Virus record (IMG/VR): IMGVR_UViG_2600255005_000005
Length of the DNA: 14,025 nucleotides
Direction: 5' to 3' (one strand)
Source of the DNA: a virus
Lineage: Duplodnaviria; Heunggongvirae; Uroviricota; Caudoviricetes
Shown here piece after piece: positions 6,405-14,025 of the stretch. The translations under genes and the position numbers were made by a program. How positions within the stretch are numbered: the stretch's first letter is position 1; each line of letters begins with the position of its first letter. The notes beneath the pieces were generated by a model. The model did not search any database, was not told the DNA's origin, and worked only from the letters and a program-made list of their open reading frames with translations.

Positions 6405-7188
6405 ATTCCTCCTCCTCACCACCATGCATGATCTCCACCATGCGCTGCGTCATCCGGACAAATCCATTTTCAATAGCCTGCTGATAATCAATGATCACCA
6501 GCGCCGACTCCTCGAAAAAACACTGAATTTCAGCGGGGGCGTGAGCGTAATAGTCCGCAATTCTGCTGAAATTAAACACCGTGTGACGTTCTGCCGCACA
6601 CAGGAGGAATTTCTCAATATCAGGCTCAAGGGAAGCCAAACGTATCCGGCTGATCAGCTCCTGCGTTTTCGTATCGTCGTACAGTTCACTGATATCCGGT
6701 TTACCGCCCGACGGCTCATAAACAGGCGTATCAATTTTCGTCGTATACGGCTCCTCCTCATTTCCTGTACCGGGCAAAACATCCGTCAACAGTTCATCAA
6801 TTTCTGTCGGGATGAAGCCTGTCAGGGAGACATCAAAATCAGCATTGATTAGGTCCGACAGCTCCATCCGCAACAGATCTTCATCCCAGCCAGCATTCAT
6901 CGGCAGGCGATTATCTGCCAGGCGGTACGCCTTTTTCTGCTCATCCGTCAGGCCAGACAGAACAATGACCGGAACAGAATCCATTTTGAGCATTTCAGCC
7001 GCCATAACACGACCGTGACCCGCAATAATTTCGCCCTTTTCGTCAATCAGCACCGGATTAGTCCAGCCGAATTGCTTAATACTTTCTACCAGTTGTGCCA
7101 CCTGCTCAGGGCTGTGCGTCCTGGCGTTGTGCGCATACGGTGACAATTCTTGTAATGGGCGATAGACTATCTTTAATTTCTCGCTCAT
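6397..7188 (-). CDS. ParB-like nuclease domain protein
   Basis: ParB/Srx N-terminal signature (NPVLIDEKGEIIAGHGRVMAA) followed by an acidic C-terminal half. ATG at 7188 with AAGGA just upstream. Confidence 0.75.
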   Translation of the reverse strand: MSEKLKIVYRPLQELSPYAHNARTHSPEQVAQLVESIKQFGWTNPVLIDEKGEIIAGHGRVMAAEMLKMDSVPVIVLSGLTDEQKKAYRLADNRLPMNAGWDEDLLRMELSDLINADFDVSLTGFIPTEIDELLTDVLPGTGNEEEPYTTKIDTPVYEPSGGKPDISELYDDTKTQELISRIRLASLEPDIEKFLLCAAERHTVFNFSRIADYYAHAPAEIQCFFEESALVIIDYQQAIENGFVRMTQRMVEIMHGGEEEEYA

Positions 7189-7202
7189 ACATCCTTGCTT
7201 TA

Positions 7203-7240
7203 TGAATAAAACGCACCCCAGCAGCCAGTGCTACTGGGGG
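7203..7240 (-). terminator. candidate intrinsic terminator downstream of trkG
   Basis: On the minus strand a ~10-bp stem hairpin (CCCCAGUAGC / GCUGCUGGGG, 4-nt loop) is followed by UGCGUUUUAUU. Confidence 0.4.
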
Positions 7241-7325
7241 CGGAGGTGTTGCTGGTAAAGTTAGGTATTGGATCAATGAGTGAGTCAACATAATATTAAA
7301 CTCACAATTATAAATCAGCCATATA

Positions 7326-8783
7326 TTAGGAGCGCCAAAAAAAACCTGAAAACAATATAATAACAGGATAAATTTCAAGGCGACCAAGAATCATAGCTAT
7401 GCACATTAAATATTTTGCAATGTCATTAAGCACTCCGAATGACGATGCAGTAGCCCCAAAACCTAATCCCATATTATTAATACATGCAGCCACTGTTGCA
7501 AATGATGTAAGAAAATCATATCCCATACCATTTAACACCAGTATAAAAAACACCGTGAAGAGAGTATAAAGAAAAAAGAAACTCCATACAGACCTCATTA
7601 CACGATCTGTAACTATCTTCCCTCCTACATTTACACTCAACAACGCTCTGGGATGAGAAAGCTGATTTATCTCGTGTTTGCTTTGTTTGAAAAGTATAAG
7701 AAATCGAAGTGACTTAATTCCACCACAAGTTGAACCTATACATCCCCCAAAGAAACTTGACAACAGCAAAAACACTATCGTGTGCGTGGGCCAGCTTGCA
7801 TAATCCTGCGTAGCTAAACCATTATCAGTGAGCATGGAGCTGGCAAGAAAAAACGAATGAATAAAACTTCCATGCAAGTCATACATACCTATATGCCAGA
7901 CCTGGAAAGAGGTAACAATGATCACCCCTAAGGCTATTAACAGAAAGAAACGAAGTTCAATATCTCTGATTAAAGGTTTTATCGTTTTCCTGCTAATAAC
8001 AATATACCAAAGAGTGAAGTTGAAAGCCGATAGCAGGGAAAAAGAACCAGCCACCAGCTCAACCAAATAGTTATTAAAATATCCGATACTCTCGCTATGA
8101 GTTGAGAAACCACCAAGCGAAACTGTGGAAATCCCGTGACAAATAGCATCAAACAAAGGCATTCCTGCAAGTCTATAACAGACAATACAAGCAATACCTA
8201 ATAAAGAATAAGTTATCCACAGTGTCCGTGACGTATCGGCCAGGCGGGGAGTGAGTTTGTCATCCTTAAATGGCCCCGGCATTTCTGACTGATAAAGCTT
8301 TGCACCACCAATACCCAATAATGGCAATACAGCAACCGCCAGAACAATAACTCCTAAACCACCTATAAAATTTAACTGTGACCGATAGTACAAATATGCC
8401 CGAGGTAATGAACTAACATCATCAATTACAGTTGCTCCTGTTGTTGTTATTCCAGAAACCCCTTCAAACAGAGCATCAATGAACGTTAAATTAAGTTCTG
8501 AGTCAATCCATAAAGGGAATGCACTAATAACAGAAAACAAAATCCAAAACATTACAATTATAATAAACCCATCACGGGTACGTAATTGAATGCCAGATTT
8601 CTTAGTTGTATACCACGCTCCGCCACCAATGCAAAAAAATATAACGAAAGTTATAAAGAAAACGAATAGGCTTTTTTCTTTATAAAACAATGCTACAACC
8701 ATTGGTGGCAACATTGAAAGACTATAGAGCCAAACCAGGAACCCACACATATGAGTAACAACTCTTACATGAGATGTATTCAT
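7326..8783 (-). CDS. trkG: TrkG-type potassium uptake protein (Trk/Ktr/HKT family membrane transporter), prophage moron
   Basis: Multi-pass membrane protein whose sequence matches what I recall of E. coli Rac-prophage TrkG (MNTSHVRVVTHMCGFLVWLYSLSMLPP...), with repeated pore-loop glycine motifs. Strongly AT-rich relative to its flanks. First ATG at 8783; an in-frame TTG at 8801 has AAGGTGG 6 nt upstream and is an alternative start. Confidence 0.9.
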   Translation of the reverse strand: MNTSHVRVVTHMCGFLVWLYSLSMLPPMVVALFYKEKSLFVFFITFVIFFCIGGGAWYTTKKSGIQLRTRDGFIIIVMFWILFSVISAFPLWIDSELNLTFIDALFEGVSGITTTGATVIDDVSSLPRAYLYYRSQLNFIGGLGVIVLAVAVLPLLGIGGAKLYQSEMPGPFKDDKLTPRLADTSRTLWITYSLLGIACIVCYRLAGMPLFDAICHGISTVSLGGFSTHSESIGYFNNYLVELVAGSFSLLSAFNFTLWYIVISRKTIKPLIRDIELRFFLLIALGVIIVTSFQVWHIGMYDLHGSFIHSFFLASSMLTDNGLATQDYASWPTHTIVFLLLSSFFGGCIGSTCGGIKSLRFLILFKQSKHEINQLSHPRALLSVNVGGKIVTDRVMRSVWSFFFLYTLFTVFFILVLNGMGYDFLTSFATVAACINNMGLGFGATASSFGVLNDIAKYLMCIAMILGRLEIYPVIILFSGFFWRS

Positions 8784-8920
8784 ATCTAAATATTCTTTCA
8801 ATTATAACCACCTTGCTGCAATATTATGATTATACTGTATAAAATTTAACTCCTCTTAGATCTTACTTCACTGTTCCTTATGAAACAATCATCAAAATGA
8901 ATCATATTGTAGTTAAGATT

Positions 8921-11605: not shown

Positions 11606-11680
<75 letters not shown>

Positions 11681-11683
11681 ATA

Positions 11684-11759
<76 letters not shown>

Positions 11760-12667: not shown

Positions 12668-12954
12668 AAATATCCCTCCTTTCTCCAGATTTCTTGTGTG
12701 CGAAAAACACCTTCTGCATGCATCAGGCGTAATTCTTCTTTGGTGTAATCGCTGGTTTTTACCCGCCCGTCGATTAGATCGTGGCATGAGCTACAGGCAA
12801 TCGCCGCCTGCATATCGTGTGGTTTTGTCGCTATTCCGCACGTTCCCGCCAGTCGGTAATGCGCCAGCACAGACGTTTCCGGATCGTGATTGCAGTAGCC
12901 AGGAATTCTGACGGTGCACATCTGCCCCCGCGCCGCTTTACGTAAATCCACCAT
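12664..12954 (-). CDS. DUF1364-family protein (YbcO-like putative nuclease of lambdoid nin regions)
   Basis: 96 aa, MVDLRKAARGQMCTVRIPGYCNHDPETSVLAHYR...IACSSCHDLIDGR, with the conserved Cys pattern I recall for DLP12 YbcO. Its ATG overlaps the upstream stop (TAATG). Confidence 0.7.
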   Translation of the reverse strand: MVDLRKAARGQMCTVRIPGYCNHDPETSVLAHYRLAGTCGIATKPHDMQAAIACSSCHDLIDGRVKTSDYTKEELRLMHAEGVFRTQEIWRKEGYL

Positions 12955-13553
12955 TACGCAAACTCCAGCAGCTGCGCGGCCACATTTTCGACTTGTTCCG
13001 GAGAGGAAAATTTACGGAACAGAATCCAGTTCCACAGCACATTCAGAACAGATTTATAAACCTGCTGAAACTCGGTTTCGTCCATATTCGCAAAAGCGAT
13101 GGATTTCGCCCGACGCCCATGGCTACCGTCCGGATAAAAATGTTCGGTGTAAAATCCAGCCTGAATGGTTACCCACTCGCGAAAAGCCTCAAACGACTTT
13201 AGCAATGCCGTATCCCGAGTTCTGCGTGTCGCAACTGTATTCAGATATTGCTCTGCGGCATCACTCAGGGCTGGCGTGTGTTCCCGACCAACTGATTCGC
13301 ACAGGTAATCAACGAAACCAGACAGCAGTTCTCGTTCGCGAGGCGTGATCGCCCCACCGACCGGAGTCCAGTAATCGAATCCCAGTTGCAGGAGTTTGAA
13401 AAAACGCTTGTGGAATGCGTAGTTACGCACACGCTTAAAGTCTGCGTGTATCCACTCACCTATTTTGATTTGATGCAGAAAATCGCAACTCTCCGGCGTC
13501 GCCGGGAGAAGTAAACCAGAAGAGGTTTGTTTGACCAGTTGTATATGCGCCAT
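12954..13553 (-). CDS. lambdoid nin-region protein of unknown function (possibly DUF1367-like)
   Basis: 199-aa ORF with ATG at 13553, translationally coupled to the downstream DUF1364 gene. Family assignment is from memory of the sequence style (KRVRNYAFHKRFFKLLQLGF...) and is tentative. Confidence 0.6.
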   Translation of the reverse strand: MAHIQLVKQTSSGLLLPATPESCDFLHQIKIGEWIHADFKRVRNYAFHKRFFKLLQLGFDYWTPVGGAITPRERELLSGFVDYLCESVGREHTPALSDAAEQYLNTVATRRTRDTALLKSFEAFREWVTIQAGFYTEHFYPDGSHGRRAKSIAFANMDETEFQQVYKSVLNVLWNWILFRKFSSPEQVENVAAQLLEFA

Positions 13554-13828
13554 TTCTCAATCTCTCGATGGCGCAGTGCAGCAGATGCCAGTTGTTCAGG
13601 CTGACGTATAAAGTATAAATAAACTGGTTCCAGTGTAAAGCCCCCACATTGATGGAATAAAAATCAAACAATAGATTGCTGGGATAAAAATACAACGCTT
13701 ATTATTAAAAGCGGTTAGACAAATTAAATTTTAATGTTATGCAAATCTGCCAGATTAGCATAATATCTCATTTGAAAACCGCTGAAATAACAATCTTATC
13801 AGGATTAATCATATTAAGGTGAGTAAAT

Positions 13829-13915
13829 ATGGAAAACAACAAATCTGCACATTACGCTCCTTTTTTATCTATAATACTTTTTGTATTTTGTTGTGTATGG
13901 GCGGTATTTTTATAA
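13829..13915 (+). CDS. candidate small hydrophobic peptide (28 aa, MENNKSAHYAPFLSIILFVFCCVWAVFL)
   Basis: SD AGGTGA 5 nt upstream of the ATG. Polar N-terminus followed by one hydrophobic helix-length segment. TAA stop lies 15 nt before a perfect 14-bp inverted repeat. Below the ORF track's length cutoff. Confidence 0.3.
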   Translation: MENNKSAHYAPFLSIILFVFCCVWAVFL

Positions 13916-13930
13916 AACACACCCACAAAT

Positions 13931-13960
13931 AAATCAAACCCGCTACAGCGGGTTTGATTT
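13931..13960. terminator. perfect 14-bp inverted repeat (AAATCAAACCCGCT / AGCGGGTTTGATTT), candidate bidirectional terminator
   Basis: Read directly; the arms are separated by 2 nt and the flanks are AT-rich. Confidence 0.5.
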
Positions 13961-14025
13961 ATATAGTTGTTATACGGAAACTGGCACACGAGCAGGCAAT
14001 GGATAGTGAGCCCAGTTATTAGCAT

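Follow-up and report, generated by a model that had tools for sequence, protein, structure and literature searches.

The window examined here, the whole 14,025-nucleotide stretch of IMG/VR record IMGVR_UViG_2600255005_000005, is a Rac/Qin-like lambdoid prophage of Escherichia coli; its likeness to Rac is concluded from the presence of trkG and a ynaK fragment (~6930–8800). Close to its right-hand end an open reading frame (ORF) of 28 codons is found, which starts with ATG and encodes MENNKSAHYAPFLSIILFVFCCVWAVFL. It is preceded by the Shine-Dalgarno (SD) sequence AAGGTGAG, whose core AGGTGA can pair with the 3' end of 16S rRNA and is located 6 nt 5' of the ATG. All annotated phage genes near this small ORF are on the minus strand, while the small ORF itself is on the plus strand, and the GC content amounts to 27–31% over positions 13625–13924 as compared to ~50% in the flanking genes on the left side. 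An earlier reading of the letters alone (the sequence-only reading) had described a 28-residue ORF with a strong SD in an AT-rich stretch on the strand opposite to the phage operon, and all of these features are present as described. Since 17 ORFs of at least 20 residues overlap positions 13300–14025, the size of the small ORF alone is within chance; it is raised above chance by the comparative evidence, namely frame, length and codon-position pattern. The features of the region are listed in Table 1.

To find copies of the small ORF, IMG/VR was scanned with a pattern made from the ORF itself, which gave at least 120 loci. To avoid circularity, a second scan used a pattern taken from a non-coding block upstream (13699–13742) and yielded 128 sites. 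Three of these run off the end of a contig, and the remaining 125 all keep an intact 28-codon ORF with no indel or stop in any of them; 12 of the 125 had escaped the ORF-based pattern solely by missense changes. In contrast, the 260 nt upstream of the small ORF show several indels. The sequence-only reading had named beforehand what would speak against it, i.e. conservation of the DNA but not of the reading frame. It is the reading frame itself that is conserved.

Among the distinct small-ORF sequences, 6, 7 and 17 variable sites fall on the first, second and third codon position, respectively. The pooled ratio of nonsynonymous to synonymous polymorphism (pN/pS) is 0.35 in the frame of the small ORF, whereas the two other forward frames have 1.19 and 0.58. 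Of all frames, only that of the small ORF is open in every one of the 19 haplotypes. Between the window and the most diverged copy, that of locus L107, 14 of 87 bases but only four residues are different (P ~1e-4; P values give the fraction of trials with as few amino-acid changes when the observed substitutions are placed at random). Compared to three of the other four alleles, L107 gave P = 0.0001–0.0006, and compared to the fourth, from phage 666R9, P = 0.004; other between-lineage pairs gave 0.005–0.04 and the closely related S–P pair 0.30. The leader that connects the upstream block with the SD has diverged so far in L107 and phage 666R9 that it is not easily aligned, while SD, start, stop and length are kept. 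Judging from these comparisons, the small ORF varies as expected for a translated gene on which purifying selection acts at the protein level. A further possibility, that it is a fragment of a longer gene, was rejected, as the stop codon is conserved and tblastn detected no longer relative.

The same data bear on the idea that the region is regulatory DNA or RNA only and that the ORF is incidental, or is translated with the peptide itself being of no importance. Divergent promoters, tandem terminators and an insulator would then separate the cargo genes on the right (the IetAS anti-phage system in the window) from the operon of the Q-like antiterminator on the left, and a transcript of the plus strand would exert its effect through convergent transcription or as antisense RNA, similar to lambda OOP or aQ. 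Indeed, conservation of the non-coding block upstream equals or exceeds that of the ORF, promoter-like and terminator-like sites are found on both strands, and insulation is needed because the cargo and the Q-like operon are both on the minus strand. In addition, the synonymous sites of CCT TTT TTA TC (codons 11–14) are almost invariant (only three copies have TTC instead of TTT), and this may indicate a constraint at the nucleotide level. However, the excess of third-position changes, the low pN/pS, the P value of ~1e-4 for L107 and the exact retention of start, stop and length are unexpected for non-coding DNA, and the L107 cassette lies away from any Q operon. We therefore consider a purely regulatory function quite improbable.

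Table 1. Features in and around the small-ORF region; positions are counted from the first nucleotide of the window.
Feature	Position	Strand	Basis or remark
tRNA-Gly(TCC) and tRNA-Thr(TGT)	11606–11759	-	between Q-like gene and lysis genes
DUF1367 gene, left neighbour	12954–13553	-	first gene of nin/Q-side operon; ORF list and annotation
Promoter-like TTTACA-16-TATACT	13612–13639	-	10/12; ~50 nt upstream of DUF1367 start, facing it
Small hairpin CGCUU-8 nt-AAGCG, then U-rich run	13696–13713	-	five pairs; weak terminator or RNA element
49-bp near-invariant A/T-rich block	13697–13745		imperfect palindrome, arms 13697–13710 and 13729–13742
Weak candidate sigma-70 promoter	13739–13766	+	ATGCAA 13739–13744, 16-bp spacer, TAATAT 13761–13766; by eye
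Promoter-like TTTCCA-16-TATGAT	13808–13835	-	its RNA would be complementary to the 5' leader of the small ORF; consensus scan
Shine-Dalgarno sequence	13816–13823	+	core 13817–13822
Small ORF, 28 codons	13829–13915	+	stop at 13913–13915
Promoter-like TGCACA-18-TATAAT	13846–13875	+	inside small ORF; scan for promoter-like sites
Bidirectional intrinsic-terminator hairpin	13929–13962	both	inverted repeat, fold, terminator scan, homology
iteS 3' end (S8 peptidase, IetAS anti-phage system)	13970–14025	-	stop 13970–13972; RefSeq annotation of 100% identical locus

The predicted peptide consists of a polar head (residues 1–11) and a hydrophobic tail (residues 12–28) that reaches the C-terminus and has a mean Kyte-Doolittle hydropathy of 2.9 in the window and of 2.6–2.9 in all alleles. 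The positions that are invariant across the alleles read MENN...H..P.LS.ILF..C..WA.FL. A hydrophobic segment with two cysteines had been reported from the sequence alone; the segment (residues 12–28) and both cysteines (C21 and C22) are there, and only C21 is invariant among the 15 alleles. A lipoprotein signal was also considered and was rejected by eye: a lipobox would be compatible with LFAC in the S allele, but not with the W and H alleles.

The conserved start, stop and length, the third-position excess and the hydrophobic C-terminal segment in all alleles agree with the small membrane protein gene that the sequence-only reading had suggested as one option. We consider it reasonably probable from these features that the small ORF is an autonomous prophage accessory gene, a so-called moron, for a 28-residue tail-anchored inner-membrane peptide. 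The gene would be transcribed in the lysogen from its own promoter, which is probably situated in the 49-bp block, and then translated; expression in the lysogen is suggested by its position on the strand opposite to the lytic operons. In the window, the transcript would end at a bidirectional terminator that it has in common with the convergent iteS. The peptide would insert with residues 12–28 in the membrane, leaving the short MENN..H..P head in the cytoplasm, and would act on the host cell. As conservation is equally high in the polar head and in the tail, binding of a specific membrane protein would be more likely than plain membrane damage.

The 49-bp block, located 83–88 nt upstream of the ATG and containing the inner repeat ATTAAAtTTTAAT, always accompanies the small ORF, L107 included, even where all else differs, which points towards a unit that consists of block, leader and ORF. 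The block probably serves the small gene as promoter/UP-element or operator region; alternatively, it could be an RNA element or a small-RNA gene on the minus strand. The A/T tract at 13721–13736, which precedes the candidate sigma-70 promoter (Table 1), could act as an UP element. At the equivalent position, a position weight matrix (PWM) scan found ATGCAA with TAACAT in L003 and L129 and ATGAAA with TAGCAT in L107; all three -10 hexamers retain the T, A, A and T.

There are, however, several points that weigh against a translated membrane peptide with its own promoter. The haplotypes are few (19) and related, they belong to a narrow and young family, and the selection tests ignore kinship; because the family is restricted to Escherichia and Shigella, these tests are based on a small number of independent events. 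A pN/pS of 0.37 was obtained for the antisense frame that has its third positions in common with the small ORF, but this frame is open in only 4 of the 19 haplotypes. T-rich DNA easily encodes Phe, Leu and Ile, so hydrophobicity alone is weak evidence. The proposed plus-strand promoter scores below six listed PWM candidates in the window, and a consensus scan upstream of the ORF gave no plus-strand sigma-70 match of at least 9/12. The SD is weakened (TAAAGTG) in ~30% of the copies, the commonest allele among them, and predicted folds leave it mostly paired (probability of being unpaired 0.18–0.47). With regard to the SD variants, TAAGGTG is found in ~100 of 146 copies and the weaker TAAAGTG or TAAAGCG in ~44.

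The predicted pairing of most of the SD would also suit a new module resembling type I toxin-antitoxin systems, in which a membrane-depolarising peptide is repressed at the level of translation by a small RNA from the minus strand. This RNA could start at the 13835–13808 site and would then be antisense to the leader, or it could be a ~60-nt block RNA reaching from ~13750 to the hairpin at 13713–13696. A toxin of this kind would be small and hydrophobic, as is the 28-residue peptide, whose ...LFL end we take to be like that of ShoB, and the cassette is found among toxin and defence genes. Models of Hok/Gef, Ldr, TisB, Ibs, ShoB, DinQ and ZorO, however, do not match the peptide, and no Rfam RNA was detected. 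The SD pairing partner differs in each allele, and a conserved SD-masking structure was therefore rejected. The minus-strand promoter-like site overlaps the start codon and retains a -10-like hexamer at this position in 4 of 5 alleles. The -35 of the site, however, is constrained in any case by codons 1–3 of the coding sequence, and an antisense promoter at this site is speculative.

The evidence from the block hairpin is similarly divided. All three of its variable stem pairs stay paired in 5/6 variant classes on the minus strand as opposed to 3/6 on the plus strand, and the changes GC>GU>AU and CG>UG>UA fit a minus-strand RNA, but the hairpin is very weak (~-2.9 kcal/mol) and has no U-run in L107. 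Its left arm CGCTTTTA is identical in 7/8 positions to lambda boxA, which we assume to read CGCTCTTA. Pairing between small RNA and mRNA could be mediated by a 9-nt direct repeat, CAAATCTGC, at 13742–13750 (block edge) and 13840–13848 (codons 4–7), which shows a partly parallel change in the Shigella-type allele (AAGTTC at both sites). As a conserved pairing element the repeat was rejected, since it is absent from the commonest allele and about one such repeat is expected by chance in an A/T-rich stretch. In addition, the would-be overlap of sense and antisense RNA (13746–13812) is the least conserved part of the module. The type I toxin-like option of the sequence-only reading, with neither a toxin-family model nor an Rfam antisense RNA matching, with weak candidates for antisense promoter and terminator and with no conserved masking of the SD, is hence not borne out, and we regard such a module as rather unlikely. 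A bolder version, which we hold to be unlikely, is a two-part module that combines a membrane-active peptide with a divergent small RNA from the 49-bp block and that marks and guards the fixed edge of the slot for defence cargo in Rac/Qin-like prophages, possibly as a type I toxin-antitoxin or abortive-infection element or through superinfection exclusion at the inner membrane.

Known short toxins offer a further comparison. ShoB, IbsC, TisB, ZorO and DinQ are similar to the small peptide in size (19–29 residues), in having a single hydrophobic helix, in being encoded in an A/T-rich gap and in being missed by gene callers. The small gene differs from them in the lack of any sequence or profile match, in its occurrence as a single copy instead of tandem repeats, and in its good SD, for which no conserved masking fold is predicted. 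By its sequence, the small peptide falls outside the known short type I toxin families. The hokD (relF) gene of Qin occupies the same place in the prophage, and its terminator is homologous to the hairpin of the window, but the small peptide is unrelated to Hok/Gef and the window carries IetAS instead of hokD.

The small inner-membrane proteins of E. coli catalogued by the Storz laboratory include YnfS (from Qin), AcrZ and MgtS. Proteins of this type resemble the predicted peptide in that they have fewer than 50 residues and one transmembrane segment, were missed by annotation and are in some cases prophage-borne. YnfS is annotated in Qin a few kb from the corresponding place and shows no sequence similarity to the small peptide; the same holds for Rem of K-12 Qin. 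The small gene is missing from the catalogues of small ORFs and ribosome profiling because it is absent from K-12.

The hairpin beside the small ORF has arms of 16 nt (13929–13944 and 13947–13962) that are 100% complementary. The sequence-only reading had reported a perfect 14-bp inverted repeat just downstream of the ORF, which was correct as to perfection and place, while the arms are longer. The predicted fold consists of a 15-bp stem (AAATCAAACCCGC/GCGGGTTTGATTT) with the GC core CCCGC/GCGGG and a 4-nt loop, TACA; the left arm is A-rich and the right arm T-rich, and a U-run follows 3' of the stem on both strands. On the minus strand its energy is -22 kcal/mol (z = -7.1; 0/200 shuffles fold equally well). 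It also dominates the plus-strand fold and is marked as terminator-like by the plus-strand scan. With this stem, loop and tracts, and with its location 3' of two convergent genes (the distance to the stop codon is 8 nt for iteS on the minus strand and 14 nt for the small ORF on the plus strand), the hairpin has the properties of a rho-independent bidirectional terminator.

Comparison of the related loci suggests to which gene this terminator belongs. Four sequence types follow the small-ORF stop in 146 loci, namely the hokD type, the IetAS type (represented by the window), a type with DUF1971 and a BstA-like gene, and that of L107. In the hokD-type relatives a hairpin, AAACCCGCCGAAGCGGGTT, which is often degenerate, is found at the same place after hokD, and the window aligns to it. 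Of this region, K-12 Qin shares only the hairpin, rem occupying the place of the small ORF. After the ORF of the S/P and L107 alleles the hairpin is absent, the terminator being present in the W and H alleles only. As the hokD hairpin is homologous and other alleles of the small gene lack the hairpin, we conclude from these alignments that it is the intrinsic terminator of the neighbouring cargo gene and would serve the small gene only secondarily. The previous assignment of the hairpin to the small gene itself does not hold, as it would be the terminator of the convergent neighbour, i.e. iteS here and hokD in most relatives. The transcript of the convergent small gene can also end there because of the A-tract on one side and the T-tract on the other. 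The hairpin would act as terminator and insulator and block the transcription of lysogen-expressed cargo (IetAS, or hokD elsewhere) from running into the operon of the Q-like antiterminator, since cargo and operon share one strand and the cargo would have to be expressed in the lysogen.

The short distance between stop codon and stem (14 nt) would also allow for a leader peptide, in which a ribosome at the stop codon tunes read-through of the hairpin and with it the antisense transcription into iteS or hokD. There is a weak likeness to the Phe and Leu leaders of Rfam (E = 0.03–0.14), which is far below the gathering scores; no Rfam family reached its gathering threshold, the best hit (Phe_leader) having 28 bits instead of the 55 needed and being driven by the terminator. 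Such a leader would, however, need a co-oriented gene downstream, and all downstream genes are convergent in every context. The S/P and L107 alleles lack such a hairpin, no run of regulatory codons is present, and a leader would not be expected to show amino-acid conservation of a transmembrane-like segment. Altogether, a leader peptide is highly improbable.

Two additional elements were noted within or next to the ORF. A long-range repeat of 10–12 bp, TTTTATCTGT(R)A / T(Y)ACAGATAAAA, is present in hokD-type loci (L002, L003, L005 and others) and absent from the window. It pairs codons 12–15 with the 15 nt after the stop and appears in predicted folds, but was rejected due to inconsistent covariation, with an A–C mismatch in ~20 copies. 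The promoter-like site inside the small ORF (Table 1) could give rise to a short RNA reaching up to the terminator or could be fortuitous; a perfect TATAAT, with ATA as the Ile15 codon, is specific to the window allele, while TGTAAT, TGTGAT or CGTAAT is found in other alleles.

The interpretation as an autonomous moron is in line with the contexts in which the cassette of block, leader and ORF is found. Its left neighbour is DUF1367 in 86 loci and a gene for a 92-residue protein in 49. On the right, hokD follows in ~92 loci, IetAS in 15 and DUF1971 in 24 (in some together with a BstA-like gene), and rarer neighbours are a HEPN (LA2681) protein and a Sll1717-type P-loop ATPase. The sequence-only reading had pointed to hokD near the Q region of Qin as a precedent for the location, and hokD is in fact the immediate convergent neighbour in ~70% of related loci. 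The cargo slot extends to the right of the small-ORF stop and is located between the replication-side genes (ydaV, DUF1627, DUF977) and DUF1367. It contains IetAS in the window and, in relatives, hokD alone, hokD-relBE, HEPN, DUF1971 with a KilA-N/BstA-like gene, or the Sll1717-type ATPase. The best matches to the whole window (99.7% identity) stop at 13917, two bases 3' of the small-ORF stop, which suggests that this stop is a mosaic or recombination boundary. In L107, the cassette adjoins tail-fibre genes, away from any Q operon, and only block, SD and ORF are homologous. According to these comparisons the cassette is intact wherever it is present and moves as a unit between prophage contexts.

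Lambdoid morons that have been described include bor and lom of lambda and gp15 of HK97. The cassette is similar to these with respect to its deviant GC content (27–31% as compared to ~50%), an orientation independent of the lytic operons, and presence or absence among otherwise similar phages, as seen in K-12 Qin, where rem is found in its place; a second position is occupied in L107. A promoter of its own is probable, the weak candidate being located next to the conserved block, and a terminator follows the ORF in the W and H alleles. It differs in that the small gene is far smaller. In its genomic behaviour the cassette corresponds to an autonomous moron, and it forms the fixed left border of a slot for defence or toxin cargo.

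With regard to distribution, 5,426 complete E. coli genomes were searched. The window-type and hokD-type alleles have matches in 761 of these, and in 607 the match covers at least 80% of the query; a second allele group (phage 666R9, Shigella) matches 466. At least one genome occurs in both lists, and the total comes to ~1,100–1,200 of the 5,426 genomes, i.e. about one fifth, with a median of one place per genome. In GTDB, the only species representatives with a match were Shigella flexneri and Escherichia ruysiae. The inducible phages vB_EcoS-683R6 and 666R9 carry the small gene.

None of the RefSeq/GenBank matches listed has an annotation over the small ORF, and exact look-up of the four commonest alleles in a collection of 15 billion proteins found none of them, which is expected as the ORF is below the usual minimum of gene callers (30 codons). 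Searches of Pfam and NCBIfam (E up to 10) gave chance matches only (Sec20, Lp6.6), far under the cut-off, and those of PHROG, PADLOC and PDB with the small peptide were likewise at chance level. By tblastn against 50,697 phage records only four records were found, all of them already known from the DNA search. Two degenerate viral scans for distant homologues gave no match, and the five matches of a metagenome scan were all random on translation. The peptide strings were found in no paper, nor in the supplements of the Sakai intergenic small-gene study, and literature searches on IetAS and on hokD, lambdoid prophages and hotspots yielded nothing concerning the small ORF.

Small membrane peptides and morons borne by prophages are already well known, and the small gene is no surprise in kind. 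It is below the 30-codon floor of gene callers, yet shows selection at the protein level and is present in about one fifth of complete E. coli genomes, which makes it a well-defined candidate for work on small proteins. Moreover, the small-ORF stop provides a landmark for the boundary where lambdoid prophages swap cargo such as IetAS, hokD/relBE, BstA-like, HEPN or the Sll1717-type ATPase.

The surrounding gene order was taken from the annotation of near-identical genomes together with a tRNA scan. On the minus strand and from right to left, the end of iteS and the non-coding gap are followed by DUF1367, DUF1364, DUF1133, tRNA-Thr, tRNA-Gly, holin, YdfR, lysozyme, an Rz-like lysis gene, trkG, the ynaK fragment, terminase and a portal-like gene (DUF4055). 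The DUF1133 protein is named antitermination protein Q in phage records. The last 426 bases of the window are 100% identical to 13 complete genomes with iteS as the right-hand gene, among them those of AR_0369, M18 and CEC15; iteS extends past the end of the window and is followed by iteA in identical genomes. The region of the promoter-like site that faces DUF1367 is conserved in all alleles but L107, and the nin/Q-side genes may thus have a promoter of their own downstream of the predicted cargo terminator. The DUF1367 gene is annotated as frameshifted in strain AR_0369 (L001, 5356–5954), and the corresponding ORF of the window is intact with 199 codons, so the window does not derive from this strain in spite of the identical last 426 bases. 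The pair of tRNA genes is placed as in many lambdoid and Stx-type prophages.

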